A DNA stretch of 64,000 bases from Candidatus Tayloriibacteriota bacterium (GTDB lineage Bacteria; Patescibacteriota; Minisyncoccia; Phycocordibacterales; PALSA-1337), in contig JANNAN010000017.1 in assembly GCA_031384385.1 (NCBI GenBank), positions 3,020 to 67,019 on the forward strand, given 5' to 3'. Position 1 is the stretch's first letter; every line of letters begins with the position of its first letter. The translations under genes and the position numbers were made by a program. This document shows positions 3,969-32,500 of the stretch, in pieces. The notes under the pieces were generated by a model that was not told where the DNA came from, did no database searches, and saw only the letters and a program-made list of their open reading frames with translations.

Positions 3969-5087
3969 ATGTCTTTTTTGACTGATATTTTTTTAAATTT
4001 ATTTTCTAAACAAAGCCAAAGCGTTCTTGGTATTGATATTGGATCATCAGCCATAAAAGTTGTTCAAATAAAGAAAAAACGAGGAAGAGCTGTATTAGAA
4101 ACATATGGAGAACTTGCTCTCGGTCCTTATGCAGATACAGAGGTTGGTAGAGCAACTAGTCTTTCTGTCGAAAAAACAATAGAAGCTCTAAAGGATATTT
4201 TAAGAGAATCAAAGACCACGACTATTTCATCTGGAATTGCTTTGCCATTATCTTCAAGTCTAATTTCTTTTATTACAATTCCTATTGTTCCAGAAAAACA
4301 AGTAGCAGAGGTCATATCTCTTGAAGCAAGAAAATATATTCCAGTTCCAATGAGTGAAGTTTCTTTAGATTATTCTCTTATTCCAAAAGAAGATTCGTAT
4401 TCCTATACAGATGAAAAAGGAATAGATACAGCCCAAAAACAAACTCAAGATGCATTGGTTGTTGCCATTCACAATGAATATTTAAATAATTATCAAGCTA
4501 TTAGTGTAGGAACTGGCCTTCAGCCAGCATTTTATGAAATTGAGATTTTTAGTTCAATTCGTGCTGTTGTAGAGCAGGGAATACAAGCAGTTATGATTAT
4601 TGATATGGGTGCAAGAGTTACAAAACTTTATATTATTGAAAGAGGAATTTTGCGTGCTTCACATATTATTAATAGAGGTTCACAAGATATTACTTTAGCT
4701 ATTTCTAAATCTTTAAGTATTAGTGTAAATGAAGCAGAAAATATGAAAAGAACCTATGGATTGAAGGGTGGGCCAGAATATAAAGAGCTTACAGAAATAA
4801 TTACGGTAAATTTAGATTTTATTTTTTATGAATCTAATGCAACTATGTTAAATTATCAAAAAAAATACCAGAAGAATATTAGTAAGGTTATTTTGACTGG
4901 TGGAGGAGTGCTTTTGAAAGGATTTACAGATTTGGCTCGTATAAGTTTTCAAACAGAAATTGTTTATGCCGATCCATTTAGTCATTTGGAGACCCCGGCA
5001 TTCCTTTCAGAGCAATTCGCCCAAGCTGGACCAGAGTTCGCTGTTGCTATCGGTTGTGCATTGCGTAGAATTTCAGAATTAGAATAG
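3969..5087 (+). CDS. pilM: Type IV pilus assembly protein PilM (actin-like ATPase)
   Basis: N-terminus LGIDIGSSAIKVVQI. Size 372 aa. Operon context with pilN/pilO. Confidence 0.8.
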   Translation: MSFLTDIFLNLFSKQSQSVLGIDIGSSAIKVVQIKKKRGRAVLETYGELALGPYADTEVGRATSLSVEKTIEALKDILRESKTTTISSGIALPLSSSLISFITIPIVPEKQVAEVISLEARKYIPVPMSEVSLDYSLIPKEDSYSYTDEKGIDTAQKQTQDALVVAIHNEYLNNYQAISVGTGLQPAFYEIEIFSSIRAVVEQGIQAVMIIDMGARVTKLYIIERGILRASHIINRGSQDITLAISKSLSISVNEAENMKRTYGLKGGPEYKELTEIITVNLDFIFYESNATMLNYQKKYQKNISKVILTGGGVLLKGFTDLARISFQTEIVYADPFSHLETPAFLSEQFAQAGPEFAVAIGCALRRISELE

Positions 5088-5142
5088 ATATACACAGTCA
5101 GGCACTTCTTATTTATCTATTGTTCTAGTATAATTTAAATAA

Positions 5143-5766
5143 ATGGAAACTAAATTTCAAACATCGTTCATTCCTAAAAAACCTTTGATATCAGATTCAA
5201 AGACCCACTCTTCTGGTGGTGGCACAAGTGTATTGATGATTATTGGATCTTTGATATTTGTATTCTCTCTTGCTGGAGCTGTCTTTACTCTTATTTGGCA
5301 AAATGTATTAAATAAGGATCAAGTAGCTTATAAGGCTCAACTAGCAGATAGTGAAAAGAGATTCAATACTACTTTGATTAAAGATCTAAAAAGATCAAAT
5401 ACAAAAATAGATTTTAGTAAAAAATTATTAAATGATCATCTTGCTGCATCATCAATTTTCTCTATAATCAGTGCCTTGACAATAGAGGGAGTTAGGTTTA
5501 ATAGTTTTGATTTTACGGCTCCAGGAAAAGATTCCGATGGGGTAAAGATTTCTATGAGAGGGGTGGGGAGTAGTTTTAGTGCCATTGCTTTTCAATCTAG
5601 TGTATTTGGTGAATCAGAAAAATATGGTTCAAATAAGATTTTAAAAAATCCTGTTCTTTCAGATCTTTCTCTTGATCAGAATGGTAATGTTGGATTTACT
5701 TTTACATCTACTATAAATCCAGCAGAAATTTCTTATGATAAGATTTTAAATTCTACAACAAAATAA
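5143..5766 (+). CDS. pilN: PilN-like inner-membrane pilus assembly protein
   Basis: Single N-terminal TM helix then a periplasmic domain. Position after pilM. Confidence 0.55.
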   Translation: METKFQTSFIPKKPLISDSKTHSSGGGTSVLMIIGSLIFVFSLAGAVFTLIWQNVLNKDQVAYKAQLADSEKRFNTTLIKDLKRSNTKIDFSKKLLNDHLAASSIFSIISALTIEGVRFNSFDFTAPGKDSDGVKISMRGVGSSFSAIAFQSSVFGESEKYGSNKILKNPVLSDLSLDQNGNVGFTFTSTINPAEISYDKILNSTTK

Positions 5767-5770
5767 TTCT

Positions 5771-6346
5771 ATGAATAAAAACCTAACACCAATAATACTT
5801 GTGATACTAGCAGTCGGAATATATTTTACTTTTACTGCTGGAAAAATCGATGAATTAAAATCTATTCAGTCTGTTAATGCTGGATATCAACAAGCTTTAA
5901 ATAATTCAGAAAAGCTAATCAAGGTTCGTGATACTGTTTTGAAAAATTATAATAATATTTCTGAAGAAGATCGTGCTCGTCTTGATAAAATGTTGCCAGA
6001 TAATGTAGATAATGTTCGTCTAATTATTGATGTTAATGGTGTTGGGGCTAGGCACGGTTTATTTTTAAAAAATATAAAAACAAATGCAACCAATATAATT
6101 CCGACGGCAGAAATTACAAAGGGAAGTATTATTACAACAAAAAATAATGTAAATGGTTCTCAAGGGTATGAAACAGTAACTCTTTCATTTAATGTAACAA
6201 CAGACTATCAAACATTCATTGATTTATTGAAGGATTTAGAAATGAGTTTAAGAATTATGGATATTTCAAAAATTACACTTAATGCAAATGATGGTAAAAA
6301 TTATGAATACAGTGTTGAGTTAAAAACATATTGGTTAAAACAATAA
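5771..6346 (+). CDS. pilO: PilO-like pilus assembly protein
   Basis: N-terminal TM helix, coiled-coil region and operon position. Confidence 0.5.
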   Translation: MNKNLTPIILVILAVGIYFTFTAGKIDELKSIQSVNAGYQQALNNSEKLIKVRDTVLKNYNNISEEDRARLDKMLPDNVDNVRLIIDVNGVGARHGLFLKNIKTNATNIIPTAEITKGSIITTKNNVNGSQGYETVTLSFNVTTDYQTFIDLLKDLEMSLRIMDISKITLNANDGKNYEYSVELKTYWLKQ

Positions 6347-6350
6347 TTAT

Positions 6351-6701
6351 ATGAATAATAATAAATCATCATCAACTAAGTCAATAATTATTTTTATAGC
6401 TGTTATCGTTGTTGCTGGTTTATTATTCTTCTATTTTTTGGGCAATAAAACTCCAGATTCTAATTCTTCAATAGATACAGAGGGTGGTTCATCAGAAACT
6501 CAAATTGCTGGTGCAAGAGTTCTTACTTTATTAAATCAAGTCTCTTCTTTAAAAATTGATAAAAGCCTATTTGATAGCGCAAGTTACAGATCTTTAGTCG
6601 ATTATACTGTTAATATACCAGAACAGAATGTTGGTAGACCAAATCCATTTGCACCTATTGGTGGTATAACCAATGGTACAAGTACAGCAAAAGGGCGTTA
6701 A
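6351..6701 (+). CDS. Small membrane-anchored pilus-associated protein (PilP-like?)
   Basis: N-terminal TM segment. Translationally coupled within the pil operon. Confidence 0.35.
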   Translation: MNNNKSSSTKSIIIFIAVIVVAGLLFFYFLGNKTPDSNSSIDTEGGSSETQIAGARVLTLLNQVSSLKIDKSLFDSASYRSLVDYTVNIPEQNVGRPNPFAPIGGITNGTSTAKGR

Positions 6702-6713
6702 TTTAATTTTTAT

Positions 6714-8426
6714 ATGAGTATAATCGATATACTACTTTCAAAAAATCTTATAGGTAAAGATGATGTCACTGAATTAAGACAAAGAGTTTCCAAAGGAGAA
6801 TCTTTGGATCAAGTTTTAATTGAAAAAGGAATAGGACCTGATGAAATTTTATCTGCGCATGGTGAATTTTTAAATATCCCAATACGCGCATTGGGAGATA
6901 CTATTGTTCCTTTTGAAGCACTTGATTATATTCCTGAAGAATCAGCTACTCATTATAAATTTGTTCCAATTGCAATTAAAGCTGGAGTTCTTGAGGTAGG
7001 AATTGTTGATCCAGACAATATTGAAGCTCGTGATGCTTTAAATTTTATTGCCGCAAAGAAAAATATTCCTTATAAAGTTTTTCTTATAAATATAGATGAT
7101 TTTAACAAAGTAATTGAATCGTATAAAGGAATTGGCGGAGAGGTGTCCAAAGCTCTTACTGAACTTGAATCTGTGCTCTCTGTTGATACGGGTGATTCAA
7201 TTGATTTAAAACAAGCAAAAACTGACGATTCAGATGCAATCATTATTGAAGATGCGCCGGTAGTAAAAATCGTTGCTTCTATTGTTAGATATGCTACAGA
7301 AGGAAATGCTTCTGATGTACACATAGAACATATGAGAGACAAAATTCGTGTGCGTTTTCGTGTCGATGGTATTTTAAATACAAGTTTAGTTCTTCCTCCA
7401 CAAGTTCATGGAGCTGTAGTTTCTCGTATTAAAATTCTTTCAAATATGAAACTTGATGAAAAACGCAAGCCGCAAGACGGTCGTTTTTCTGCAAGAATTG
7501 ATGGAAGAAAAATAGATTTCCGTGTTTCAACCTTTCCAGCTTATTATGGAGAGAAGGTTGTGATGCGTATCCTTGATCAAGAAAAAGGTGTTAAAAAAAT
7601 AGATGATTTGGGCATGACATCAAAAAATCTAGCCCTTTTAAAAGAAGCAATTCAAAGACCATACGGGTTGATACTTTTGACTGGTCCGACTGGTTCAGGA
7701 AAATCTACTACTCTCTATTCTATGTTAAATGAAGTAGATAAAGAAAGTTATAATGTGCTTTCTCTAGAAGATCCTATTGAATACAATATGGACGGTGTAA
7801 GTCAATCACAAGTTCGTCCAGAAATTGGTTATACATTCGATTCAGGACTTCGTACTACTCTTCGTCAAGATCCAGATATTATAATGGTGGGAGAAATTCG
7901 AGATAAGGAAACTGCGCAGCTTGCTGTGCAAGCTGCGCTTACTGGTCACCTTGTATTTTCTACACTCCATACAAATAATGCTGCAGGCGTGATCCCTCGT
8001 CTTATAGATATGGGTGTTGATCCTTTCCTTATCGCTCCCACACTTATCTGTGCGATTGCCCAGCGTCTAGTTGGAACATTACCACCCGGTGCGGGAAAAC
8101 CTCTGCCAGTTGAGGGTAGTATAAAAATGATGATAGATAAACAATTTTCTGATCTCCCAGAACAATATAAAAAAGATATTCCTTTTTCAGATACAGTTTA
8201 TGGAATTGCACCAACAGCAGAATGTCCAAGAGGTACTAGAGGGCGTATGGCTGTATTTGAAGTATTTAAAATGGATAAAGAAATTGAAAATGCAATTCTT
8301 ACAAATCCAACAGAGCTTGAAATCAGCAGACTGCTTCGCCAAGAGGGTATGATAACAATAAAAGAAGATGCAATGATTAAGGCATTTCAAAAACTTGTTC
8401 CTTTTGAAGAAGTTAATAAGCTTTAA
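6714..8426 (+). CDS. pilB: Type IV pilus assembly ATPase PilB (GspE family)
   Basis: N-terminal GSPII_E_N-like domain. Walker A LTGPTGSGKSTTLYSML. His box GHLVFSTLHTNNAAG. Confidence 0.85.
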   Translation: MSIIDILLSKNLIGKDDVTELRQRVSKGESLDQVLIEKGIGPDEILSAHGEFLNIPIRALGDTIVPFEALDYIPEESATHYKFVPIAIKAGVLEVGIVDPDNIEARDALNFIAAKKNIPYKVFLINIDDFNKVIESYKGIGGEVSKALTELESVLSVDTGDSIDLKQAKTDDSDAIIIEDAPVVKIVASIVRYATEGNASDVHIEHMRDKIRVRFRVDGILNTSLVLPPQVHGAVVSRIKILSNMKLDEKRKPQDGRFSARIDGRKIDFRVSTFPAYYGEKVVMRILDQEKGVKKIDDLGMTSKNLALLKEAIQRPYGLILLTGPTGSGKSTTLYSMLNEVDKESYNVLSLEDPIEYNMDGVSQSQVRPEIGYTFDSGLRTTLRQDPDIIMVGEIRDKETAQLAVQAALTGHLVFSTLHTNNAAGVIPRLIDMGVDPFLIAPTLICAIAQRLVGTLPPGAGKPLPVEGSIKMMIDKQFSDLPEQYKKDIPFSDTVYGIAPTAECPRGTRGRMAVFEVFKMDKEIENAILTNPTELEISRLLRQEGMITIKEDAMIKAFQKLVPFEEVNKL

Positions 8427-9925: not shown

Positions 9926-11134
9926 ATGTTATTTATTTATAAAGCTGTAGATGAAAAAGGGGAACAAAGATCTGGATCAGTAGATGCAGTAAATATAGAT
10001 GTAGCTATTGCCTCACTCCAAAGAAGAGGATTTGTTATCACAACAATAAATGAAGAGGGTGTTAATAAATCATTCCTATCAACAAATATATCTTGGCTTG
10101 AAAGAGTTTCCAATAAAGATGTAGTTATTCTTTCTAGACAACTTGCTACATTGTTTGAAGCTCAGGTTTCTGCGCTTCGTATTTTTAGACTTCTTGCTGC
10201 AGAAACAGAAAATGTTGCATTAGCAAAAAAATTAGTAATGATATCAGATGATTTGCAGGCAGGTAGTCAGATTTCAGCTGCTTTGGCAAAACATCCAAGA
10301 GTGTTCTCAGATTTTTATGTCAGTATGGTAAAAGCAGGTGAAGAATCTGGTAAATTAGATGAAACTTTCAATTACCTTGCAGATTATCTTGATCGTACAT
10401 ATGAATTAGTTTCAAAAGCCAAAGGAGCTCTCGTTTACCCAGCATTTGTTGTTATTACCTTTGTTACTGTTATGATTCTAATGTTCACAATGGTTATTCC
10501 AAAAATTAGTGGAATTCTAGTAGATTCCGGTCAAGAAATTCCATTCTATACAAAAATCATTCTTGGTATAAGTAGTTTTTTGGTAAGCTATGGTTTTATT
10601 CTTCTTGCTATTGTTGTGGTGGGTGGATTCTTCTTGATACGCTATATTCGTACTCCGTCAGGCTCTATTATTTTTGATAATTTTAAATTGAGTATTCCAT
10701 ATATAAGTAATCTATTTAGAAAGCTTTACTGGTCACGCTTGGCAGACAATATGAACACGATGCTTATTTCTGGTATCCCCATGATTCGTGCATTAGATCT
10801 GACTTCTTCTGTTATAAACAATTCTATCTATCGTAAAATAATTGCTGATTCTGTAGAATCTGTAAAAGCAGGTAAGGCATTGTCCGAAGCTCTTTCTGGA
10901 AACGATGAAATACCTGGAATTATGATTCAGATGATTAAGGTGGGTGAAGAGTCTGGAGAGCTCGGTGCTATTCTTAAAACTCTAGCTAAATTTTACGCTA
11001 GAGAAGTAGTTACTGCTGTTGATGCTCTTGTAGATCTTATTGAACCTTTGATGATTGTTTGTTTGGGTGCTGGTGTGGCTATACTTCTAGCTTCTGTACT
11101 TATTCCTATTTACAATGTAGCTAGTTCACAATAG
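9926..11134 (+). CDS. pilC: Type IV pilus platform protein PilC (GspF family)
   Basis: Two repeated GspF-like domains, each with TM segments. Size 402 aa. Confidence 0.8.
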   Translation: MLFIYKAVDEKGEQRSGSVDAVNIDVAIASLQRRGFVITTINEEGVNKSFLSTNISWLERVSNKDVVILSRQLATLFEAQVSALRIFRLLAAETENVALAKKLVMISDDLQAGSQISAALAKHPRVFSDFYVSMVKAGEESGKLDETFNYLADYLDRTYELVSKAKGALVYPAFVVITFVTVMILMFTMVIPKISGILVDSGQEIPFYTKIILGISSFLVSYGFILLAIVVVGGFFLIRYIRTPSGSIIFDNFKLSIPYISNLFRKLYWSRLADNMNTMLISGIPMIRALDLTSSVINNSIYRKIIADSVESVKAGKALSEALSGNDEIPGIMIQMIKVGEESGELGAILKTLAKFYAREVVTAVDALVDLIEPLMIVCLGAGVAILLASVLIPIYNVASSQ

Positions 11135-11153: not shown

Positions 11154-11264
11154 AAAAAGTATATTGTCCGACTCAAGAGGTTTTACATTGATTGAATTGC
11201 TAGTAGTTATAGCTATTATTGGTATTCTGTCATCTGTAGTGTTGGCGTCATTATCAACAGCGAG
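11154..11264 (+). repeat. Pilin 5' cassette, copy 1: 5'UTR plus the conserved N-terminal coding region. About 110 nt near-identical to the copies at 12070-12180 (inverted) and 12496-12606.
   Basis: Identical string aaaaagtatattgtccgactcaagaggttttacattgattgaattgctagtagttatagctattattggtattctgtcatctgt. Confidence 0.85.
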
Positions 11265-11598
11265 GACAAAAGGAAAGGATGGATCTGCAAAAGCTAGTAT
11301 GAGTTCACTGAGAACTCAAGCAGAACTTGCGGTTGATGCAAGCGGAAATTATCACAGTGCGATCTGTACCGCGGCTGGAAATGCAGCCACACCAGGTCTT
11401 TTAACTTTAATCACTGGTATTAATGCTCAAGTTCCAACCGCAAATGCAGCTGACTGCGATGTTTCTGCATCTCCATATTCTGCATGGGCAGTGGGCGTAA
11501 CATTAAATGATGCCACATTTTTTTGTGCAGACAGCACTGGATTTAGTGGAAAAACAGCAGCTATAAAGGGTGCAACAGCTACAGTTTGTACTCCATAA
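11164..11598 (+). CDS. Type IV major pilin (prepilin), paralogue 1, TTG start
   Basis: Leader MSDSRG followed by FTLIELLVVIAIIGIL (class III signal, Glu5). Variable C-terminal domain with Cys pair. Confidence 0.8.
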   Translation: MSDSRGFTLIELLVVIAIIGILSSVVLASLSTARTKGKDGSAKASMSSLRTQAELAVDASGNYHSAICTAAGNAATPGLLTLITGINAQVPTANAADCDVSASPYSAWAVGVTLNDATFFCADSTGFSGKTAAIKGATATVCTP

Positions 11599-11642
11599 TA
11601 ACTTAATAGTCTAATTACAAATTTAGTTAGTAAAAAACCATC

Positions 11643-11673
11643 TTAACAAAAGATGGTTTTTTAAATCTGCGGT
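11643..11673. terminator. Bidirectional Rho-independent terminator between the convergent pilin genes
   Basis: AAAAAA-CCATCTT-aacaa-AAGATGG-TTTTTT. Confidence 0.7.
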
Positions 11674-11693
11674 AATTATTTAAGAAATTATAA

Positions 11694-12194
11694 TTACAGA
11701 CACACTGTTGTTGCAGCTGCGATTGAACTTGTTAGTGTAGTTGTATAATCTGCACCTGAACTATTAGACTTTCTTGAAACTCCAGTACTATCAACACACC
11801 AAGCCCCTGTTGATGTGACCGCTGATACCGCCCAAGCAGAGCCGTTAGATGAAGGATTGCCAGTAGCTGAGGCACATCTTACATTTGCTAAAGTAAGTCC
11901 ACCACCCAAAAGATTTCCTAAGCCACTGTTAGCTGTATCAAATAATGTTCCACTTGTTGCCGCACAAGGAGTAACAGCTGTAACAGCAGTACCATTTGCT
12001 GTATATAATTCAGCTTGTGCTCTCATTGATGCTAGTTGTGATTGTATTTTTGCATCATTCCCCTTACTTCTAGCAGTAGATAATGACGCCAACACCACAG
12101 ATGACAGAATACCAATAATAGCTATAACTACTAGCAATTCAATCAATGTAAAACCTCTTGAGTCGGACAATATACTTTTTGTGTTTCTTTTCAT
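11694..12194 (-). CDS. Type IV major pilin (prepilin), paralogue 2, inverted orientation
   Basis: MKRNTKSILSDSRG then FTLIELLVVIAIIGILSSVVLASLSTARSKG. The N-terminal 110 nt is identical to paralogues 1 and 3. The C-terminal domain is divergent. Confidence 0.8.
   Translation of the reverse strand: MKRNTKSILSDSRGFTLIELLVVIAIIGILSSVVLASLSTARSKGNDAKIQSQLASMRAQAELYTANGTAVTAVTPCAATSGTLFDTANSGLGNLLGGGLTLANVRCASATGNPSSNGSAWAVSAVTSTGAWCVDSTGVSRKSNSSGADYTTTLTSSIAAATTVCL
12070..12180 (-). repeat. Pilin 5' cassette, copy 2, on the minus strand. It forms an inverted repeat with copy 1.
   Basis: Reverse-complement identity to 11154-11264 over about 110 nt. Confidence 0.85.
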
Positions 12195-12495
12195 AACAAA
12201 ATAAATTAACTTAATAAATAATAAAAATAAAACTTATAACATAAGTATATCAAAAATAGAAAGAATAGCTTCATAGTGGATATGTGGATAACTTTTAGTG
12301 TTGCAAAATATGGCTATTTTAGTGATTAAAAATAAAATTTGTCTTAATTTAATAAAAGAAATCGTATGATCTTAAGCTGTTCTATATTTAAATATAAATG
12401 AGTAAAATATTTAATCGATATTTAATTTAGATAAAAATTAGCAAATAACTAGGTTTTTAATATAAATACGCATATTACAGACATAATCTTGGTCT

Positions 12496-12606
12496 AAAAA
12501 GTATATTGTCCGACTCAAGAGGTTTTACATTGATTGAATTGCTAGTAGTTATAGCTATTATTGGTATTCTGTCATCTGTGGTGTTGGCGTCATTGAATAC
12601 AGCGAG
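12496..12606 (+). repeat. Pilin 5' cassette, copy 3
   Basis: Identical to copy 1 apart from 1-2 mismatches over about 110 nt. Confidence 0.85.
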
Positions 12607-12970
12607 AGGAAAAGGTGCGGACACAGCCATTAAGGGGAATCTAGCCGGCATTAGAACACAAGCCGAAATATATTACGATGGAAATTCAAATTCATATGGT
12701 ACTCAAGCTTCAAGCACTATTACATCTTCAACTGGTGTTTGTGGAGGAGCGGGTATATTTAGTGATGCTAATGTTACAGCCGCGCTTAAATCAGCAATGT
12801 CACAGACAGGAGATACTGCAAAAGGGTATTGTGTAGCGAATGGCACTTATTGGTCAATTGCTGTACCTTTAAAAACAGATAATACATCATCTTGGTGTGT
12901 GAGTTCAGCTGGAAAGGCACAATCAATAACTACTGCCGCAACTGCTGCTGCATTCGTAGGTTGTTTATAA
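12506..12970 (+). CDS. Type IV major pilin (prepilin), paralogue 3, TTG start
   Basis: MSDSRG then FTLIELLVVIAIIGILSSVVLASLNTARGKG. Divergent C-terminal domain. Confidence 0.8.
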   Translation: MSDSRGFTLIELLVVIAIIGILSSVVLASLNTARGKGADTAIKGNLAGIRTQAEIYYDGNSNSYGTQASSTITSSTGVCGGAGIFSDANVTAALKSAMSQTGDTAKGYCVANGTYWSIAVPLKTDNTSSWCVSSAGKAQSITTAATAAAFVGCL

Positions 12971-12997: not shown

Positions 12998-13035
12998 AAA
13001 CCCCTCGCCACTCGGCGGGGGTTTTTGTGTTTTTA
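12998..13035 (+). terminator. Rho-independent terminator after pilin paralogue 3
   Basis: AAAACCCCTCGCC-actc-GGCGGGGG followed by TTTTTGTGTTTTT. Confidence 0.65.
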
Positions 13036-13478
13036 CTTCAGCATTATACTGAAGAAGTGTTTACTATTGTCTTTGATTTGTCTAATAACAACTGTAATTT
13101 CTTGATTGTCTATTTTCCCAGTAAATGATCAGAAATTAGTAAAATTTTTGTCTTTGATATTTTTATTAAAATCTTTAATTTTCTTACTAGGACTCACTAT
13201 TTTGGGTGCATATTTAATTAAATTTAGTCTTCTGATTTGCTCATGTATTTTTCTTTATTTTCTGTATGAATATTTTGTGTTTTTTGTTAAGCATTAGACA
13301 ATTTTAACAAAGCCCAGATAAAGATCTGATAAAGAAGTTCTAAAGAAATGATAAAGATTTTTTGTGAATAAAATGAATATAGCCGTAGAATACAAATTTT
13401 AGCCACATGTTAATAGAATTTATATTCTGTGGACTTCTCTTGTATAAAAATTATGATTTTATTGCTATAATTGATTAT

Positions 13479-13979
13479 ATGAATATTAACTATACAAGAT
13501 TTAAAAAAGGTTTTACATTAGTAGAGCTAATGATAGTGATTGCTATTATTGGAATTTTAACAGCTATTGTTACTTCAAATTTTTCTCAATCAAAAGCAAA
13601 ATCAAGAGATGCTAAGCGCATTTCTGATCTTGCGCAAATTCAACTAACATTAGAATTAGCTTTTGATAGATGTAATGCATATCCAGCTAATATAAACGAT
13701 ACAAACACAGTTGTATGTTCGGGCTATCCTTTAAGTTATTTTATTTCAGTAATTCCAAAAGAGAATTCAACGACTGGTTATGATTATATTACGAATGTAG
13801 CATCTACAGACTATGTTTTGGGGGCTAAATTAGAAACAAATAGCAGTGCATTAGTAGATGCGATAACAGCTTTTCCATCTAGCTTTGGACCTACTATTAC
13901 TAGTTTTACAAGTGGTAATAATAACTGCACTCATAGTAATCCAGCTGGTCCATTCTATTATTGTGTTCAACCAAAATAA
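13479..13979 (+). CDS. Pilin-like protein with a prepilin-type N-terminus
   Basis: MNINYTRFKKG then FTLVELMIVIAIIGILTAIV. The upstream N-terminal extension in the ORF track is unlikely. Confidence 0.65.
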   Translation: MNINYTRFKKGFTLVELMIVIAIIGILTAIVTSNFSQSKAKSRDAKRISDLAQIQLTLELAFDRCNAYPANINDTNTVVCSGYPLSYFISVIPKENSTTGYDYITNVASTDYVLGAKLETNSSALVDAITAFPSSFGPTITSFTSGNNNCTHSNPAGPFYYCVQPK

Positions 13980-13983
13980 ATAA

Positions 13984-14781
13984 ATGCCAACATTCTTCTT
14001 AATTTATTCGTTTGTAATTGGTGCAATAGTCGGTAGCTTTTTGAATGTTGTTGCTTTGAGATATAACACTGGCATGACATTGAAGGGAAGATCAAAATGT
14101 TTTTCTTGTGGTAAAAATCTAAATTGGCGTGAACTTGTACCAGTTTTTAGTTTTCTATTTCAAAAAGGTAAATGTAAAAATTGTAAAAGTAAAATTTCTT
14201 GGCAATATCCTCTTGTTGAAATAATGGCTGGAATTTTATTTATAATGATTTTCTTTGTTTTTCCACCTACAACTATTCAAGAAAGTTTCACTACTCTATT
14301 TTATATTTTTGTAACTTGCTTGCTTTTGATTATTACAATTTATGACATAAAACATAAAATTATTCCTGATTCTATGTCATATACTTTTAGCGCTGTGGCT
14401 TTAGCTCATCTATTTATTGGTTCAGATTTATCTTTTATTATTCCAAATTGGACTCAACTATTAGCTGGCCCGCTTCTATCTTTGCCTTTTGTATTAATGT
14501 TCTTAATTTCAAAAGGTACTTGGATGGGTCTTGGTGATGCAAAACTTGTTCTGGGAATTGGATGGATACTGGGTATTTCAGCTGGAATATCAGCTATAGT
14601 TCTAGCCTTCTGGATAGGTGCAGTTATAAGTATAATGTGGATGTATATTATTTTTAGAAAAATTAAATCTAGATATGAAATACCATTTGGACCATATTTG
14701 ATTTTGGGTATGTATATTGTTCTTTTGTTTGAAGTTAAAATAATTGATCTTAGACCTTTTTATGAAATATTCTTTAAATAA
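13984..14781 (+). CDS. pilD: Prepilin peptidase PilD (A24 family leader peptidase / N-methyltransferase)
   Basis: N-terminal CxxC...CxxC (CFSCGKN...CKNCKS) Zn-binding region and a multi-TM A24 peptidase body. Confidence 0.8.
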   Translation: MPTFFLIYSFVIGAIVGSFLNVVALRYNTGMTLKGRSKCFSCGKNLNWRELVPVFSFLFQKGKCKNCKSKISWQYPLVEIMAGILFIMIFFVFPPTTIQESFTTLFYIFVTCLLLIITIYDIKHKIIPDSMSYTFSAVALAHLFIGSDLSFIIPNWTQLLAGPLLSLPFVLMFLISKGTWMGLGDAKLVLGIGWILGISAGISAIVLAFWIGAVISIMWMYIIFRKIKSRYEIPFGPYLILGMYIVLLFEVKIIDLRPFYEIFFK

Positions 14782-21409: not shown

Positions 21410-21481
21410 AGCGGGGTAGGGTAACGGTAACCCGTCAGGCTCATAACCTGAAAATTGGCGGTTCGATTCCGCCCTCCGCAA
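21410..21481 (+). tRNA. tRNA-Met (CAT), initiator-like with an unpaired 1-72 position
   Basis: Anticodon loop CTCATAA. Acceptor positions 2-7 GCGGGG pair with CTCCGC. A1 opposes A72. T-loop GGCGG-TTCGATT-CCGCC. Confidence 0.7.
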
Positions 21482-21492
21482 CAAGTAAAATG

Positions 21493-21518
21493 AAAAGTGG
21501 CGCGATTCGCCATTTTTT
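21493..21518 (+). terminator. Hairpin with T-run between the two CAT tRNAs
   Basis: AAAAG-TGGCG-cgatt-CGCCA-TTTTTT. Confidence 0.5.
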
Positions 21519-21535
21519 GTTATATTTTATTTTAT

Positions 21536-21606
21536 GTCGGTGTAGTTCAATGGTAGAACGAAGGACTCATAAGCCTTAGACAATGGTTCGATTCCATTCA
21601 TCGACA
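21536..21606 (+). tRNA. tRNA with CAT anticodon (elongator Met or lysidine Ile2)
   Basis: Acceptor GTCGGTG/CATCGAC. Anticodon loop CTCATAA. T-arm ATGG-TTCGATT-CCAT. Confidence 0.7.
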
Positions 21607-21684
21607 CAAATTTTTTCAAACGTTTTTTAATTGCAGACATTTTTTCTTGCCTTTTCTGTATTTTTTGATACATTTATCAGTATT

Positions 21685-21758
21685 GCGATCGTAGCTCAAC
21701 TGGTTAGAGCACCCGCCTGTCACGTGGGAGGTTACGGGTTCGAGCCCCGCCGATCGCG
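21685..21758 (+). tRNA. tRNA-Asp (GTC)
   Basis: Acceptor GCGATCG/CGATCGC. Anticodon loop CTGTCAC. Discriminator G. Confidence 0.8.
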
Positions 21759-21773
21759 CATAAATAAAATATT

Positions 21774-21983
21774 ATGGATACAGAAAATTTTGAAGGTATA
21801 TTTGTAGATGATAATAGGTCAAAAGTTTTGGCTATAAGAGATCAGGTTTTTGCTATGGGAAATAATGATTCAGAGAAATCTCGTTTTGATGAAATTTTGG
21901 CTGGACTTGAAAATGATTCTATAAGTGGTGACAAAGCAATAGAGGAAGCAAATAGCATTCTTAATAGTAAGATAATGAGATAA
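21774..21983 (+). CDS. Small acidic hypothetical protein (69 aa) embedded in the tRNA array
   Basis: Intact ORF with ATG start between tRNA-Asp and tRNA-Thr. No recognisable domain. Confidence 0.3.
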   Translation: MDTENFEGIFVDDNRSKVLAIRDQVFAMGNNDSEKSRFDEILAGLENDSISGDKAIEEANSILNSKIMR

Positions 21984-21997
21984 TTGAATTTTATTGT

Positions 21998-22073
21998 GCC
22001 GACGTAGCTCGGTTGGTAGAGCACTCCATTGGTAATGGAGAGGTCATCGGTTCGATCCCGATCGTCGGCTCCA
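21998..22073 (+). tRNA. tRNA-Thr (GGT), with encoded CCA
   Basis: Acceptor GCCGACG/CGTCGGC. Anticodon stem CTCCA/TGGAG with loop TTGGTAA. 3' TCCA. Confidence 0.85.
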
Positions 22074-22078
22074 GTGTC

Positions 22079-22143
22079 GCCAAAGTAGCTCAGTTGGTAG
22101 AGCATCACTTTCGTAAAGTGAGGGCCTCCGGTTCGATCCCGGA
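22079..22143 (+). tRNA. tRNA-Thr (CGT)
   Basis: Acceptor GCCAAAG/CTTTGGC. Anticodon stem TCACT/AGTGA with loop TTCGTAA. Confidence 0.8.
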
Positions 22144-22303
22144 CTTTGGCTCATTTAAGAATATATGCTATAATAGTTTTTAACCGAGATGGAAGTTGTG
22201 GTCAATTAATGTCCTAGGACATTTGATGATATGGTGAGACATCCGTCTCTTTTTTCCATTCATCTTCTACCCACTACGACCCCACTCGGTTTTCTTTTTA
22301 TAT

Positions 22304-23185
22304 ATGGATAAGCAAAAAACAGAATTAAGAATACAAGAAATTGAAATAGCAATGCAAGCAGGAGATTTTTGGTCTGATAAAAATAAAGCTCAAGCAACAC
22401 TGAAGGAACTGCAAGATTTAAAAAATAATCTTGAAGGAATTGGTAAATTTGATAAAGGAAATGCCATCATGACTATTTTTTCTGGTGCAGGAGGAGATGA
22501 TGCGGAAGATTTTTCTGCAATTTTATATAGAATGTATAGAAAATTTTGTGAGAAACAAGGATGGGGAATGGAATTAATTCACGAAAATGTTAATGATCAT
22601 GGTGGTTTTAGAAATATTACAGTCGAAATAACTGGTAAAAATATTTATGGAACTTTAAAAAATGAAAGTGGAGTTCATCGTCTTGTTCGTATCTCTCCAT
22701 TTAATGCTAAACAACTTCGGCACACTTCATTTTCAATGGTTGAAATTATTCCAAAATTTGAAAAGATAAACAGTATTGATATGGAATTATCAGAAAAAGA
22801 CATTGAAATTTCAATTGCAAAATCAGGAGGTCCTGGAGGACAGAACGTCAATAAAAGAGAAACTGCAGTTAGGATTGTCCATAAACCAACAGGACTTTCG
22901 GTGCATGTAACTTCAGAAAGATCCCAAGCCCAAAATAAAGAAAAAGCATTAGATATTTTGAAGGGTAAATTATTTAAGCAAATGGAAGATGAGAGAATCG
23001 CCAAAGAAAAAGGAATGTATATTAGTAAGTCTACATCTATTGAATGGGGCAATCAAATTCGATCATATGTATTTCACCCTTATAAAATGGTAAAAGATCA
23101 TAGAACCAATGTAGAAACAAATCAAGTTGAAAAAGTTCTCGAGGGAGAATTGGAGGATTTTCTTGAAGCAGAGAAGGTATTATAA
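22304..23185 (+). CDS. prfB: Peptide chain release factor 2, N-terminally short. No programmed frameshift site is apparent.
   Basis: SPF tripeptide motif (SPFNAK) and GGQ motif ([20 protein letters not shown]). The N-terminus aligns with the post-frameshift portion of canonical RF2. Confidence 0.8.
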
Positions 23186-27460: not shown

Positions 27461-27532
27461 TGCCAGATCGTCTAACGGTAGGACGTCGCTCTCTGAAAGC
27501 GAAAATTTTGGTTCGATTCCAAGTCTGGCAGC
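27461..27532 (+). tRNA. tRNA-Gln (CTG)
   Basis: Acceptor TGCCAGA/TCTGGCA (U1-A72 as in bacterial tRNA-Gln). Anticodon stem TCGCT/AGCGA with loop CTCTGAA. T-arm TTTGG-TTCGATT-CCAAG. Confidence 0.8.
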
Positions 27533-29085
27533 AATTTCGCAAAAATCGCAGAATCGCCGAAAAAAGGCGAAGGGGTCGCAGAATGAGGAGGGCGGGGCGG
27601 AATTCCCCCCTGAAACACCCCTTCCGCCCCGCCCGCTTCCTTGTTGGCGTTTTTGGGAATTTTCGTTACAAATGCAAAAGGAAAATGCGGAGAAAAAATG
27701 AGGGTGCGGTTGTGGACGAGTGGGTTCGAACCGACTTTTTCAAAGAATGATCGAATTTTCGTAGCATCAGTACTCTCTGCCAAAATAGTGGCTTGTTTAC
27801 AGTCGTTTAGGAAATTTATGATAGGTTCGAACCGATTGCTAGAAACTTTGCCGAAAGCAGTGATTTTGTCTTTCAAAACCTGCTTTTCGGTCACCAATTT
27901 ATTCTTTGTTTCTTGATACTCTTCAAGAGTTAGGGCATTGCCAAGATATGCTGACATAAGTTTTTCTAATTTAGCGTCAACGGCTAGTGCCTCACTATTT
28001 ACTTTCTGAATCTGATTTTTTGAGGAATCATCGTCTTTAGATCGATCTTTCTCTACTTCCGCAATAAGCCAGTCGGCCACTTCACTAGACAGTGATACTT
28101 TTCTGATCTCATCCTGGATGAGTGTCGTCATAGCTTCCTCACGGACATACTTTTGAGAGCATGGGCCTTTGCGTTTGGTGCAGCGTAAATAGTTATGACC
28201 TTTTTGTGTCTCAATAGTAAGGCAACAGCCACATTCAGCGCATTTGAACAGTCCGCGATAAACATATGGTTTCAAATCACCGTCATGTTGTGGTTTACTT
28301 TTTTTGGTCATGACTTCCTGGCATATATCAAAAATTTTCTTGGTGATAATCGGCTCATGCTTGCCTTCATAAAATTCACCATGAAAAAGTATGAGTCCAT
28401 GATAAAGATTATTTTTGAGTAGATACTGATAATTTGAAATGGAAAGCTCCTTGCCTTTGTGTCCAGTCAAGCCAAGTTCACCTATACTTTTGCGGAGGGC
28501 TGATAAAGTATAATTTCTGGTAGCATATGTTTCAAAAGCTTTCTTGATGAAAGGAGCTTTTTCAGGATCGACTACAATGAGTTTTGTTTTCTTGTCGTTA
28601 AGATATCCAATCGGCGCTTTCTGTGGCCAGATGCCGTTCTTCAATTTTTGTTTGTAACTCCTCTTAACATTTTCGGAAAGATTGTCTACATAATATTTCG
28701 ATTGAGAAAAAGAGATGGAAAGCATAAATTTTCCCTGCGGAGTTGCGTCAAACCAGAAAGTTGGAAATTTTAAATCAGTAATTACACCAGTATCAACCAT
28801 GTAAATGATTTTTCCACCATCAACCGAGTTACGAGCGAGCCTGTCGGGATGCCAAGCCAAAATCCCTGAAGCCTCGCCAGCTTCTATGCGCTCCAACATC
28901 TCCGCGAAAACAGGTCTACCGGGAGTTTTGGCAGTTTGCTTCTCGATAAATACATCTACAACCTCCAGTTGCTCTTTTTTGGCGAGCTCGCGTAGCTCGG
29001 AGAGCTGGTCGGCAAGACTTCGGACTTGTCGATCCTCGGTATCGGTAGATTTGCGGGTGTAAATAAAATATTTCTTGTCGCTCAT
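27472..29085 (-). CDS. Large serine recombinase (resolvase/invertase N-domain, recombinase domain, zinc ribbon). The ORF reads through the GC-rich trailer into tRNA-Gln.
   Basis: N-terminus YTRKSTDTEDRQVRSLADQ (catalytic Ser region). Cys cluster CAECGCC...CTKRKGPC. Size 537 aa. The last ~20 codons overlap tRNA-Gln on the opposite strand. Confidence 0.8.
   Translation of the reverse strand: MSDKKYFIYTRKSTDTEDRQVRSLADQLSELRELAKKEQLEVVDVFIEKQTAKTPGRPVFAEMLERIEAGEASGILAWHPDRLARNSVDGGKIIYMVDTGVITDLKFPTFWFDATPQGKFMLSISFSQSKYYVDNLSENVKRSYKQKLKNGIWPQKAPIGYLNDKKTKLIVVDPEKAPFIKKAFETYATRNYTLSALRKSIGELGLTGHKGKELSISNYQYLLKNNLYHGLILFHGEFYEGKHEPIITKKIFDICQEVMTKKSKPQHDGDLKPYVYRGLFKCAECGCCLTIETQKGHNYLRCTKRKGPCSQKYVREEAMTTLIQDEIRKVSLSSEVADWLIAEVEKDRSKDDDSSKNQIQKVNSEALAVDAKLEKLMSAYLGNALTLEEYQETKNKLVTEKQVLKDKITAFGKVSSNRFEPIINFLNDCKQATILAESTDATKIRSFFEKVGSNPLVHNRTLIFSPHFPFAFVTKIPKNANKEAGGAEGVFQGGIPPRPPHSATPSPFFGDSAIFAKLLPDLESNQNFRFQRATSYR
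27534..27650. repeat. GC-rich tRNA trailer, family C, with a perfect 12-bp inverted repeat (GGCGGGGCGGAA ... TTCCGCCCCGCC at 27590-27632)
   Basis: Shares gaatcgccgaaaaaaggcgaaggggtcgcagaatgaggagggc with trailer B (about 80% identity). TCGCAGAAT occurs twice. Hairpin with a 19-nt loop. Confidence 0.55.
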
Positions 29086-29240
29086 GGATGTATTTTACCA
29101 AATTTTTCAGAAAGCAAGAAATATTTTTTACATAAATCAGTGCATAAACAGTTAACAACTATACTTTCATTGAGAAGCGGTCGACTTTTGCTTCCCTCAC
29201 TGGACATTGTTCACCCTATCACATATCTGTATGTCGGATG

Positions 29241-29274
29241 CTTCCCACGGTTGCAATGAGTAACCGTGGGAAGC
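29241..29274. repeat. Perfect 12-bp inverted repeat hairpin within the GC-rich region upstream of the recombinase
   Basis: CTTCCCACGGTT-gcaatgagt-AACCGTGGGAAG. The surrounding 29100-29560 is about 50% GC with a further stem GAAGCGG-aagtgag-CCGCTTC. Confidence 0.6.
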
Positions 29275-29597
29275 GCGGGAGCCGTTCGGATATGCGTCTG
29301 GAGCGCCACAGACCTACTAGAAGCGGAAGTGAGCCGCTTCGAGTCACTGTAGCCTGTGATTTGTGATGTGTGATTGCGTTCAAAAATGAAAAGTAAAAGG
29401 AGGTGAGTACCCATCTGGTCCGCAACCGCACCCTCGTTTTTTCACCACGCTTGCCCTATGCCCTCGTCACGCACATTCCCGGAAAAATAAGGATTTATGC
29501 GGGCGGGTGATGGGGTTTGATTCTACTAAAGGAAAACGTAAATTATGTGTAAAGGCAGGACTTTTAAAATTGACTAAAACATAGTATTATTACCTGT

Positions 29598-32500
29598 ATG
29601 TTTGAAGGACCTCATATACCTAATGACGAATTGGAGAAAGATAAAGTTGAATCATCTGCATCAGATGCATTAGAGGCTCCTCTAGAAGATTGGAAAAATA
29701 GAGCATATTTTCGTATAAATCTCGGTGTTCATCGAGAAAGGATTGATCGAATAGTGGAACCTCTCAAAGAGACTCATCCGGAGTGGTTCAGATCTTTTAA
29801 AAATAAAACTGGGATGGGTGAGTATTTCTCCCCCGAGCTTGTTTCGATAGTTAGAGAAGAACTTGAAAAATATAAAAAGGCACCGGAAGGCTGGGAAGTC
29901 ATTAGTACTCTAGAGGAGTTAACTGGTAAATCAGGTGGTTTTATAAGTAAGACTATTGAACCATATAGAGAAACTCATCCCGAGTGGTTTAAAGATTATC
30001 TAAGTAAGAGGTCTAAGATTCTTGAACATTACGCACCTGAACTTATAACAATATTAAAAAAAGAATTTCAAAGTTATGAATATGCTCCTGAAGGATGGAA
30101 AACAAGAAATTCTGTGGCAAAGTCACTGAATGCTACAGATTTTATAGTTCAAAAAATTGTTAATCAGTTTGAACAAATTCATCCAGAGTTGGTAAAAGAT
30201 TACATGACAAAATCAGGTGTACTCACGCATTTTTCACCAGAATTAATCCTGATTATTGAAGAAGAACTGCTAAAAGAAGAAAAAGCACCAGAAGGGTGGG
30301 AAGTGATAAGTATGTTAGCTGAATTAACTGACAGAAGTCCTTTATTAATCAGAAGAACCATTGAACCATATAGAGAAACTCATCCCGAGTGGTTTAAGAA
30401 TTATAAGACTAGATCTGGTTTATTTGAACATTTTTCTCCTGAGTTAGTTGCGGTTATTAAAAATGAATTTTTAAAAGAAGAAAAACCACCAGAAGGGTGG
30501 ATGAATAGAAATGAATTGCATGATTCTTTGGGAATCAGTTATAAGAAACTTAATCGAATGGTAGCAACTCAGAAAGAAATTCATCCTGAGTGGTTTAAGT
30601 TCTTTAAGGGCAAGGCATTAGTTACGGAGTATGTATCCCCAGATGCTATTTTATTTTTTAAGGATATCGTAGTAAAAGAAGAGGAACCTCAAAAAGGTTG
30701 GATGAGTCCAGGGGAGTTAGGAGATTATTTGAAAGTTGCTTTTAAAACTATCAAAAAGGTAGCTGTAGAGCATAAAAAAAGTAATCCAGAGTGGTACAAA
30801 CTTTATAAATCAGATAATGCGAATATGACGGAGTACTATTCTCCCGAGTTGGTTATGATCCTGGAGGATAGATTTTTAAAGCCTCCACCACCTCTGGATT
30901 GGAAGACTATAAAATCATTTGCTGTTTCTAGAAATAGTGCCGTTAAGACAATTGAGAAACTTGTAGAATCGTATAGGGAGACAAATCCAGAATGGTTCAA
31001 GAATTATCGAACAAATAATGGTGTACACGAGCATATTTCTCCCGAACTGATTTCAGTAATAGAAAATTATTTTTCTAAGCAAAGCCCCCTTAAAGGATGG
31101 GAGGTTTTACAGTCATTGATTGTTTCCACGGGAAGATCGAATAAATTCATTGAGAAATTAATATTACCTTATAGAGAAACACACCCTGAATGGTTTAAGG
31201 AATTCAGAAGTGAAGATGGCAATTTGCGAAAATATTATTCTCCAGAATTAATTTCAATAATCAAGAATGAACTTTCAAATACTGAGTTTGTTCCAGAAGG
31301 ATGGGTGACTAGGAATTTCTTCTCCAAATCTAAGGGAGTAGATGTTGATATGATCGAGGACATAATAGCGCCGTATAAAGAAAAAAATCCAGAATGGTTT
31401 AGAAAGTTTGTATCAAAAAATGGTGGACAGAAGGTGGAGTATCTTTCACCGGAGCTAGTTTCCATTTTACAAAAAGAATTGGTAGATAATATAGCTCCAG
31501 AAGGTTGGAAGGTCTTGAGAGCCCTAAGATTTTCTATTGGTATTTCAGGATCTCCAATTAAGAAAATAGCCGAACCATATAGAGATTCTAATCCTGAATG
31601 GTTTAAAACTTTCAGAAGCGAAGATGGTAATTTACGCGAATATTTTTCTCCAGAATTAGTCTCGATTATAGAAACTGAACTATTAAAAGAAGGTGAGGCG
31701 CCAGAAGGATGGTTGAGAAATACTACTATAGCCAATTCACTTGAAGTAACAAAAGAAAAAACTAAGAAACTTGCAGATCAAAGTAGGGAAGCACATCCAG
31801 AATGGTTTAAAGATTTTAGGGGGAAAGAAGGTATATTCGAGTACTATTCACCCGAATTAATTTTGATTATTAAGAATTCTATTTTTATAGAAGAAAATGA
31901 GGCGCCTGGTGGCTGGGAGACCAATAAAGGTTTACAAAATAAAACGAATTTTTCTTACTACCTTCTCGAAAAAATTGAAGAACCTTACAGACTTACTCAT
32001 CCAGAATGGTTCAAAAACTTCAGAAGCAAGACAGGTGTGTATGAGCACCTTTCACCAGAACTGGTCTCAATTATTAAAGAAGAGGCTGAAAGACGACAAA
32101 GCTATGAGAGTGAAATTTTGAATAGAGAAAATTTCGATAAAAACCTTGTCGGATTTCTTAAAGGTGTAGACTCCTCAAAAGAAGGTATCGAATTCAAAGA
32201 CCTTATCAGTGTTTTCGGCTCGTCATCTGTTTTAGATATATTGTATGCAACGCACCCAGAATTCAAAGCAGTTCCTGTTGAACGTGTAAAATCTGTTATT
32301 GCTGAATATCTTGGAAATTACTTATTGTCGCCAGGTGCTTTTTCATTAGATTCGGTTAAAAATAATTTGTCATATCTTAAAGAAGAAAATATAAAGAATG
32401 GACTGGTTGAAGTGGTGAAAGATCATTGTCTGACGTATTTTTTAGAATATAAAAAGGCTAACCATGATAAAGATGATCAACAAATATTTACCGAATATTT

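Follow-up and report, generated by a model that had tools for sequence, protein, structure and literature searches.

A 64,000-nt stretch of contig JANNAN010000017.1 from a Candidatus Tayloriibacteriota bacterium (hereafter, the window) carries a type IV pilus locus with three adjacent pilin genes. The genes, designated w1, w2, and w3, are located between pilC (9926-11134) and a block of minor-pilin and prepilin-peptidase genes (13480-14781). They share a nearly identical segment of about 100 nt at their 5′ ends, which we call the cassette. Gene conversion among paralogues of ancient divergence is the probable cause of this identity. The copies are also arranged in such a way that they form a candidate inversion switch, a reading that we offer tentatively.

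The core common to the three genes is 99 nt long and is located at positions 11154-11252 (+), 12180-12082 (-), and 12496-12594 (+). It contains a single variable base, 11238, which is A in w1 and G in w2 and w3, and the w2 and w3 cassettes are identical at 99 of 99 positions. The match between w1 and w2 covers 102 nt with one mismatch. The match between w1 and w3 covers 103 nt, also with one mismatch, and begins 4 nt farther upstream, at GTCT. Sequence comparison placed copy 1 at 11154-11255 (+), where it comprises 10 nt before the TTG codon, the SDSRG leader, and the N-terminal alpha1-N helix up to ...LASLS, with the mismatch at 11238. Copy 2 (12079-12180, minus strand) is an inverted repeat of both other copies, and copy 3 occupies 12496-12594 (+). 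When looser extension was allowed, a repeat search returned inverted arms of 128 nt at 92% identity, 771 nt apart, for w1/w2 and of 120 nt at 93% identity, 315 nt apart, for w2/w3. In the 64 kb, there are exactly three copies of an 80-mer taken from the core, against an expectation of 0 and no occurrence in 100 shuffles. The cassette, i.e., approximately the first 100 nt of each gene, encodes the last part of the leader together with the buried alpha1-N helix. A preliminary description of the locus had reported near-perfect identity over about 110 nt and an inverted arrangement of copies 1 and 2, and both were found. Two of its details apply to some of the copies only. The 10 nt upstream of TTG, taken as a shared 5′ untranslated region (5′UTR), have this position in w1 and w3, but in w2 these bases are part of the coding sequence of the leader (MKRNTKSILSDSRG). 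The start codon is not shared either, as w2 alone has an ATG, while w1 and w3 can start only at TTG.

The gene w1 (11164-11598, plus strand) codes for a C1-type major-pilin paralogue of 144 aa counted from TTG, w2 (11694-12194, minus strand) for a C2-type protein of 166 aa, and w3 (12506-12970, plus strand) for a C3-type protein of 154 aa counted from TTG. All three open reading frames (ORFs) match Pfam and lie where the pilin genes had been placed earlier. Further support comes from orthologues in the case of w1 (P0242-P0245) and w3 (P0123, P0124), and from a structural model and a profile match in the case of w2. Among the three copies, w2 is the sole gene on the minus strand and the sole one with an ATG and with a basic leader of 14 residues. 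The prepilin motif (Gly-1, Phe+1, Glu+5, and a hydrophobic alpha1-N helix) is present in each protein as ...SRG followed by FTLIELLVVIAIIGIL, and the PF07963 (N_methyl) domain was matched with E values of 7e-10 to 2e-9, above the cutoff. The w2 model, with a predicted local distance difference test (pLDDT) score of 90.4, has a helix at residues 17-62 followed by four strands, which is the lollipop fold of a long N-terminal helix and a small beta-sheet head. In a comparison of the family profile with solved major pilins, the PilA chain 6xxd_A was the best match (2e-12, nearly full length), and 8tum and 8pfb matched as well. A Foldseek search of the w2 model against PDB gave no significant match. 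Upstream of the pilins, the operon encodes PilM, PilB, a response regulator, PilT, and PilC, and downstream a peptidase A24 and minor pilins; synteny comparison showed the same gene order in relatives. By motif, fold, and operon context, w1-w3 are major type IV pilins with class III signal peptides. The named relatives belong to Paceibacteria/Patescibacteria, in agreement with the earlier assignment to the candidate phyla radiation (CPR). The C-terminal domains, which had been called unrelated, proved to be divergent homologues with 26-34% pairwise identity, four conserved Cys residues, and the common motif W[AS][VI]...C[AV][DS]S[TA]G.

To place the cassette in a wider context, we use a survey of 150 pilin loci, i.e., the window and 149 related loci (numbered L001 etc., with pilin proteins numbered P0002 etc.). 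At least two pilin N-terminal motifs were present in 109 of the loci, and the survey comprised 458 pilin ORFs. In codons 1-31 of the window genes, which correspond to the cassette, 27-28 codons capable of synonymous change are identical and 1-2 differ between copies, whereas in codons 32-62 the numbers are 5-8 identical and 6-8 different (Fisher p = 0.0002-0.009). The synonymous differences start right at the 3′ boundary of the cassette, while the protein beyond it is still partly conserved (STAR.KG.D...Q.E). Pilins of other genomes that have the identical 26 residues (GFTLIELLVVIAIIGILSSVVLASLS) show 72-83% DNA identity to the window cassette, compared with 99-100% among w1-w3. In L007, no extended identity run covers the cassette region when a major pilin is compared with a pilin of another class. 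These observations indicate that protein constraint alone is not sufficient to produce identity of 100%.

The age of the paralogues was judged from their C-terminal domains. Each of them is closer to orthologues in other genomes (57-66% for w1, 68-79% for w2, and 72-73% for w3) than to its neighbours, and the C1 and C2 types are also found together in L150 and L077. Consequently, the paralogues are old. The preliminary description had named a recent tandem duplication, of which the identical 5′ ends would be a remnant, as the alternative to conversion. Such an origin fits the adjacent position of the three genes and the 99-100% identity of their 5′ ends. It is contradicted by the fall of this identity to background within a few codons, although the protein stays conserved, as well as by the 26-34% mutual identity of the C-terminal domains, their closer orthologues elsewhere, and the joint presence of the same C1 and C2 types in other genomes. 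Recent duplication was rejected on the basis of C-terminal divergence, outside orthologues, and the sharp boundary, and we consider it extremely improbable.

A different explanation is that the identity marks a selected nucleotide element (a recombinase site, a regulatory RNA, or a DNA motif) or that it is an assembly artefact. The identity does reach 10 nt upstream of TTG, and repeats of about 100 nt are of a size at which short-read assemblers can merge variants. However, cassettes encoding the same peptide vary freely at synonymous sites between genomes (72-83%), no Rfam match was found in the region, and tRNAs were the only RNAs found in the window. As regards an artefact, collapse of the repeats could mask a few mismatches but cannot raise an identity of about 75% to 100%, and neither the unique flanks of the copies nor the convergent and divergent junctions derive from the repeat. 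The free synonymous variation led us to reject a selected DNA or RNA element, and this explanation as a whole is very unlikely. Gene conversion among the old paralogues thus remains the preferred reading. The tract is more similar within the genome than between genomes, it ends sharply, and its history conflicts with that of its flanks, which are the signs of concerted evolution. The ongoing homogenisation suggested in the preliminary description is supported by the sharp boundary at synonymous sites, by within-genome identity that greatly exceeds between-genome identity for the same peptide, and by the old, trans-specific C-terminal lineages.

Shared 5′ ends were also observed among relatives. 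In 31 of the 109 multi-pilin loci, paralogues are identical over an uninterrupted run of at least 40 nt. L001, L002, L004, L005, and L150 contain genome-specific shared 5′ tracts with mosaic boundaries, and in the first four of these the tracts often include the ATG and part of the 5′UTR. Because of these shared runs and genome-specific mosaic tracts, homogenised pilin 5′ ends are evidently a regular feature of these Paceibacteria operons. In the relatives, 2-5 major-pilin genes stand in tandem; every gene has a start of its own and often a separate promoter copy as well. Inverted copies that share a cassette were found in the window alone; one other surveyed locus, L140, has an inverted pilin, but no shared sequence. 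In the nearest relative (P0002, 79% identical to w2), comparison of the gene layout gave pilC, 30 nt, a pilin, 298 nt, and the w2 orthologue, all on one strand.

Two of the related loci deserve separate description. In L005 (JGI Ga0558079_0000246, 4769-7713), five consecutive pilin genes have an identical core of 55-75 nt with mosaic boundaries. One of the core-sharing genes belongs to a different pilin class (DIKQIQLAL type), so conversion crosses pilin classes. In L002 (ENA WANG18 scaffold_180, 5186-6685), an IS1595-family transposase gene and two small ORFs lie between two cassette-sharing pilin copies, which indicates that the pilin array is a site of rearrangement in relatives too.

The distribution of leaders points to a course of events for the window genes. 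We infer that repeated intragenomic conversion keeps the segment of about 100 nt identical in w1, w2, and w3. Conversion would end at the first type-specific codon, as longer tracts would be lost under selection that keeps the globular domains distinct. In the most recent event, w2 probably served as the donor. The C2-type pilins of the subclade have long leaders of 13-16 residues, whereas orthologues of w1 and w3 start from ATG with leaders of 6-8 residues, e.g., MKKYTKG and MKKFSQRG. Specifically, the w1 orthologues P0242-P0245 (59-66% identity) have normal MKxxxxG leaders, and the w3 orthologues P0123 and P0124 (72-73% identity) have ATG leaders. Since these leaders are so short, the ATG codons of w1 and w3 would have lain within the converted tract. 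If a tract from w2 extended to 28 nt before the Phe+1 codon, it would cover the ATG of a short-leader recipient, which lies 18-24 nt before that codon, and would replace it with internal codons of the w2 leader, including Leu TTG. Such a tract would account for both start-less copies. The GTCT common to w1 and w3 suggests a second conversion, between these two genes.

The region upstream of w2 was analysed together with the AT-rich spacer S (12181-12495, 315 nt), which separates the w2 and w3 cassettes and which was characterised by upstream homology and by an extended -10 scan. A generic sigma-70 scan is uninformative in such AT-rich DNA (14 sites versus 11.9 expected), and a terminator scan missed the hairpin between w1 and w2. 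For this reason, the promoter and terminator calls rest on the extended -10 scan, homology to upstream regions of relatives, and folding. Read leftward, the spacer contains an extended -10 element, TGATATACT, at 12252-12244, directed towards w2, then about 49 nt, and then the ATG and initial codons of w2 (12181-12194). Upstream of the -10 element, a conserved motif, AGTTATCCACAT, is located at 12293-12282 on the minus strand. The w2 upstream region is homologous to the major-pilin promoter and 5′UTR of relatives, with local-alignment z values of 8.8-14 against L150, L151, and L002. In the same comparison, the upstream regions of w1 and w3 gave z values of at most 0.7, i.e., no conserved pilin promoter, and the extended -10 scan of the spacer found no comparable box towards w3. 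The earlier proposal that the divergent copies 2 and 3 share an AT-rich promoter region of about 300 bp is therefore right as to the spacer, but the promoter in it points to w2 only. According to motifs and homology, w2 alone has a conserved promoter, 5′UTR, and ATG, and w1 may use transcription of the pilC operon. The gap between the pilC stop codon and the w1 TTG is 29 nt with no terminator in it, so w1 is probably co-transcribed with pilC.

The 12-nt motif AGTTATCCACAT lies about 30 nt upstream of the extended -10 element and is identical in the orthologous promoter of the first pilin of L150. It includes TTATCCACA, which matches the DnaA-box consensus, and a second similar copy, ATATCCACT, adjoins it. 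A regulator of the pilin promoter may bind at this motif.

Start codons were next considered across the window. ATG is the listed start in 57 of the 61 window ORFs. The TTG calls of gatC (19023) and gatA (19321) are ORF-finder artefacts, as orthologues show an ATG a few codons downstream; with these two calls corrected, and apart from w1 and w3, 58 of the 61 starts are ATG and one is listed as GTG. A Shine-Dalgarno-like motif precedes only 3 of the 61 ORFs. In many genes, TGnTATAAT is found 6-9 nt before the ATG (e.g., 3969, 5143, 8450, 23213, 26540, 35847, 53015 on the minus strand, 58173, and 60265). This pattern suggests that translation is largely leaderless or independent of Shine-Dalgarno sequences. 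Leaderless translation favours AUG. Among the 458 surveyed pilin ORFs, w1 and w3 are the only two without an in-frame ATG. The net layout is therefore one complete pilin gene, w2, and two full-length bodies that have neither an ATG nor a conserved promoter.

Such a layout could work as a switch, although the switching by inversion or deletion and the likeness to antigenic or host-range variation suggested in the preliminary description are conjectural. Oppositely oriented homologues are present, and their conserved 5′ regions form inverted repeats (w1/w2 and w2/w3). Inversion of 12181-12495 would give ATGAAAAGAAACAC in frame with the w3 cassette, and inversion of about 11256-12078, a block of about 820 nt made up of the C1 body, the terminator, and the C2 body, would join the C1 body to the w2 module. 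The w1 and w3 cassettes are direct repeats, and recombination between them would remove the C1 body together with w2. Perfect homology of about 100 nt exceeds the minimum for RecA-type recombination, and hence some inversion at a low rate across the inverted repeats is to be expected in a large population. It is possible, although doubtful, that the locus is a working pilin switch with a single expression site, in which RecA-type recombination flips the spacer to express w3 or the C1-terminator-C2 block to express w1, and that the population carries three pilus surfaces. This possibility agrees with the nearly perfect inverted repeats (99-102 nt long, with spacings of 315 and about 820 nt), with the conserved promoter and ATG in w2 only, and with the reading frame, which the sequence preserves after either inversion. 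Two rare features coincide at one locus, namely the sole inverted cassette-sharing pairs in 109 loci and the sole ATG-less pilins (2 of 458). The w1 and w3 ORFs are intact and full-length with conserved cysteines, and the perfect identity of inverted copies implies recent recombination between them. However, the intact ORFs of w1 and w3 do not prove selection, and they carry no information if the loss of ATG is as recent as the cassette divergence of at most 1% suggests. The layout is not conserved either, as the nearest relative (79%) and all others have tandem genes with ATG starts.

The search for alternative forms of the locus gave negative results. No alternative orientation was present in the collections searched, but neither was a second sample of the species; exact scans with a cassette 38-mer in genome contigs and with a 31-mer in metagenome contigs found none. 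The predicted products of inversion (an ATG leader joined to C1 or C3, and a short-leader C2) are absent from a collection of 15 billion proteins. The w1-w3 proteins themselves occur in it once, on a single NCBI contig of 78,548 nt, and for this reason the absence of the recombinant proteins says nothing either way. A recombinase adjacent to the pilins, as expected of a site-specific invertible element, was not found at 3.9-21 kb of the window. The only recombinase is 15 kb away and abuts a tRNA gene. The inverted arms are coding homology of about 100 nt, not short conserved sites of about 10-30 bp, and the inverted layout is absent from the 149 related loci. A site-specific invertase system of the Piv, Hin/Gin, Rci, or Fim type was rejected, since it has neither an adjacent recombinase nor short conserved sites here. 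The most far-reaching reading is a minimal three-cassette switch that would operate without a dedicated recombinase, with a 315-nt segment bearing the only pilin promoter, 5′UTR, ATG, and basic leader between perfect inverted repeats of 99 nt, which themselves code for the pilin assembly helix. Inversion of this segment or of the adjacent block of about 820 nt would bring any of three pilin heads with 26-34% identity under the one expression module. We put it forward as a speculative model. If it is correct, it would be a CPR phase-variation system that runs on general recombination alone. For an ultrasmall and probably host-dependent cell, it would provide a heritable and reversible choice of pilus surface, with consequences for attachment specificity or escape from pilus phages. 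If no switching takes place, the locus illustrates how gene conversion can silence neighbouring paralogues by copying an ill-fitting leader.

Several points weigh against conversion from w2 with a switch attached to it. De Bruijn assemblers can merge small differences between repeat copies, so the actual identity may fall a little short of 99-100%. The recency of conversion, its direction, and any inversion are deduced and not observed, and recA is outside the 64-kb window. Moreover, the position of TTG in w1 and w3 corresponds to the start of a 6-residue leader, the most frequent leader length in the family, so these genes may still be translated.

The last point leads to an explanation in which all three genes are expressed as they stand, w1 and w3 from TTG, and form heteropolymeric filaments or condition-specific pili. 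The tandem major pilins of relatives, which have their own starts and often their own promoters, are in line with it, and initiation at TTG would give MSDSRG, a leader of the modal length. The short gap after pilC would provide transcription of w1, and identical alpha1 regions are known from the major pilins of Streptococcus sanguinis (PMC11121087). Yet no other ORF in the window needs TTG, Shine-Dalgarno motifs are rare, and many genes look leaderless. In addition, w3 has no recognisable promoter, and MSDSRG lacks the basic residues found in every related leader. We regard expression of all three genes in their present form as unlikely. It is also possible that w1 and w3 are newly disabled copies, which conversion from the long-leader donor w2 may have damaged.

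The surroundings of the pilin genes were annotated as follows. PilC, the T2SSF platform protein (9926-11134, plus strand), was identified by Pfam (T2SSF, 1.6e-51) and by synteny with L001, L002, L004, L005, and L150. Between the convergent w1 and w2, an A-run, a stem, and a T-run at 11632-11664 form an intrinsic hairpin, AAAAAACCATCTT-AACAA-AAGATGGTTTTTT. As the preliminary description had proposed, it folds as a terminator on either strand (z = -4.1 on the plus strand and -4.6 on the minus strand). A GC-rich intrinsic terminator hairpin followed by a T-run is located 3′ of w3 (13002-13021, plus strand), according to the terminator scan and folding. In the minor-pilin block, the listed start of the ORF 13407-13979 is probably wrong. 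Downstream of the sequence TGCTATAAT (13463-13471), an ATG at 13480 opens a normal prepilin leader, MNINYTRFKKG, followed by FTLVEL.

The recombinase mentioned above is a large serine recombinase (27472-29085, minus strand), the only recombinase in the window, whose gene overlaps the end of tRNA-Gln(CTG) (27461-27532, plus strand). This overlap makes it more likely an integrase. Next to it, an 1822-aa protein with SNF2 helicase and methyltransferase parts is encoded. The N-terminal part of this protein contains about 12 tandem repeats of about 67 residues (period 201-204 nt, 29770-32080, motif HPEWFK...FSPEL). The region 27461-35066 is probably an integrated mobile or defence element with the serine recombinase as its integrase. 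Further tRNA genes were observed at 323-411, 1799-1886, and 21410-22152. They comprise a cluster (Met, Met, Asp, Thr, Thr) that has a small ORF at its centre and two tRNA-Ser genes, one of them predicted with the unusual anticodon ACT. The two tRNA-Ser genes flank a gene for a BRO-N domain protein (649-1203). The release-factor ORF 22304-23185 (293 aa) matches PCRF only from profile position 95; either the protein lacks part of the N-terminus, or the start codon or the frame was miscalled.

Type IV pili are the main known means by which cultivated Patescibacteria find and hold hosts (PMC11623550). The survey shows that, in Paceibacteria, one homogenised assembly helix is commonly combined with an array of pilin heads that differ widely. 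Such a combination is a simple route to variety on the pilus surface that leaves filament assembly intact.

In its logic, the window locus is closest to the sap locus of Campylobacter fetus, with one promoter on invertible DNA between divergent homologues. According to Dworkin and Blaser, sap reportedly consists of divergent homologues with variable 3′ parts, whose conserved 5′ region forms an inverted repeat, and a single promoter on invertible DNA. Its switching is said to have been shown experimentally and to proceed by homologous recombination, not by a dedicated invertase. The dimensions differ, as sap has a conserved region of about 600 bp, an invertible segment of several kb, and 8-9 cassettes, compared with arms of 99-102 nt, segments of 315 and about 820 nt, and three cassettes here. 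The window locus also has the start codon itself on the invertible segment, belongs to another protein family, and is known from its sequence alone. In the R64 shufflon, DNA inversions swap the C-terminal segments of the type IV pilus protein pilV and thereby change partner specificity. Unlike the window locus, the shufflon uses the tyrosine recombinase Rci on 19-bp sfx sites and has a single constant N-terminus, and its product is a minor tip adhesin of a type IVb pilus. The pilE/pilS system of Neisseria is similar to the window in having one expressed pilin gene and copies without promoter and start codon, with exchange by gene conversion. There, the pilS copies have no conserved N-terminal coding region and pass variable sequence on to pilE, whereas in the window conversion acts on the constant 5′ end and the variable parts remain separate.

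By protein family, the closest system is tfpQ/tfpI of Moraxella bovis and M. lacunata, which encodes a type IV major pilin. The inversion breakpoint is inside the conserved N-terminal coding region, and the variable C-terminal part is swapped (PMC4073114 and its references 5 and 6). The Moraxella system is site-specific, with short sites, an adjacent piv gene, and one N-terminal constant region, while the window has three full cassettes with long homology and no adjacent recombinase. The tandem-pilin pattern of the clade resembles the monoderm-type type IV pilus operon of S. sanguinis, in which 2-3 adjacent major pilins (PilE1/PilE2, PilA1-3) have an identical leader and alpha1 region and different globular parts (PMC11121087). 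The S. sanguinis copies have the same orientation and their own starts, are co-expressed, and have C-termini that are 70-94% similar, in contrast to 26-34% in the window. Taken against these systems, the locus appears to be a case of concerted evolution in a surface-protein gene family, which is a known kind, with an unproven candidate switch attached to it.

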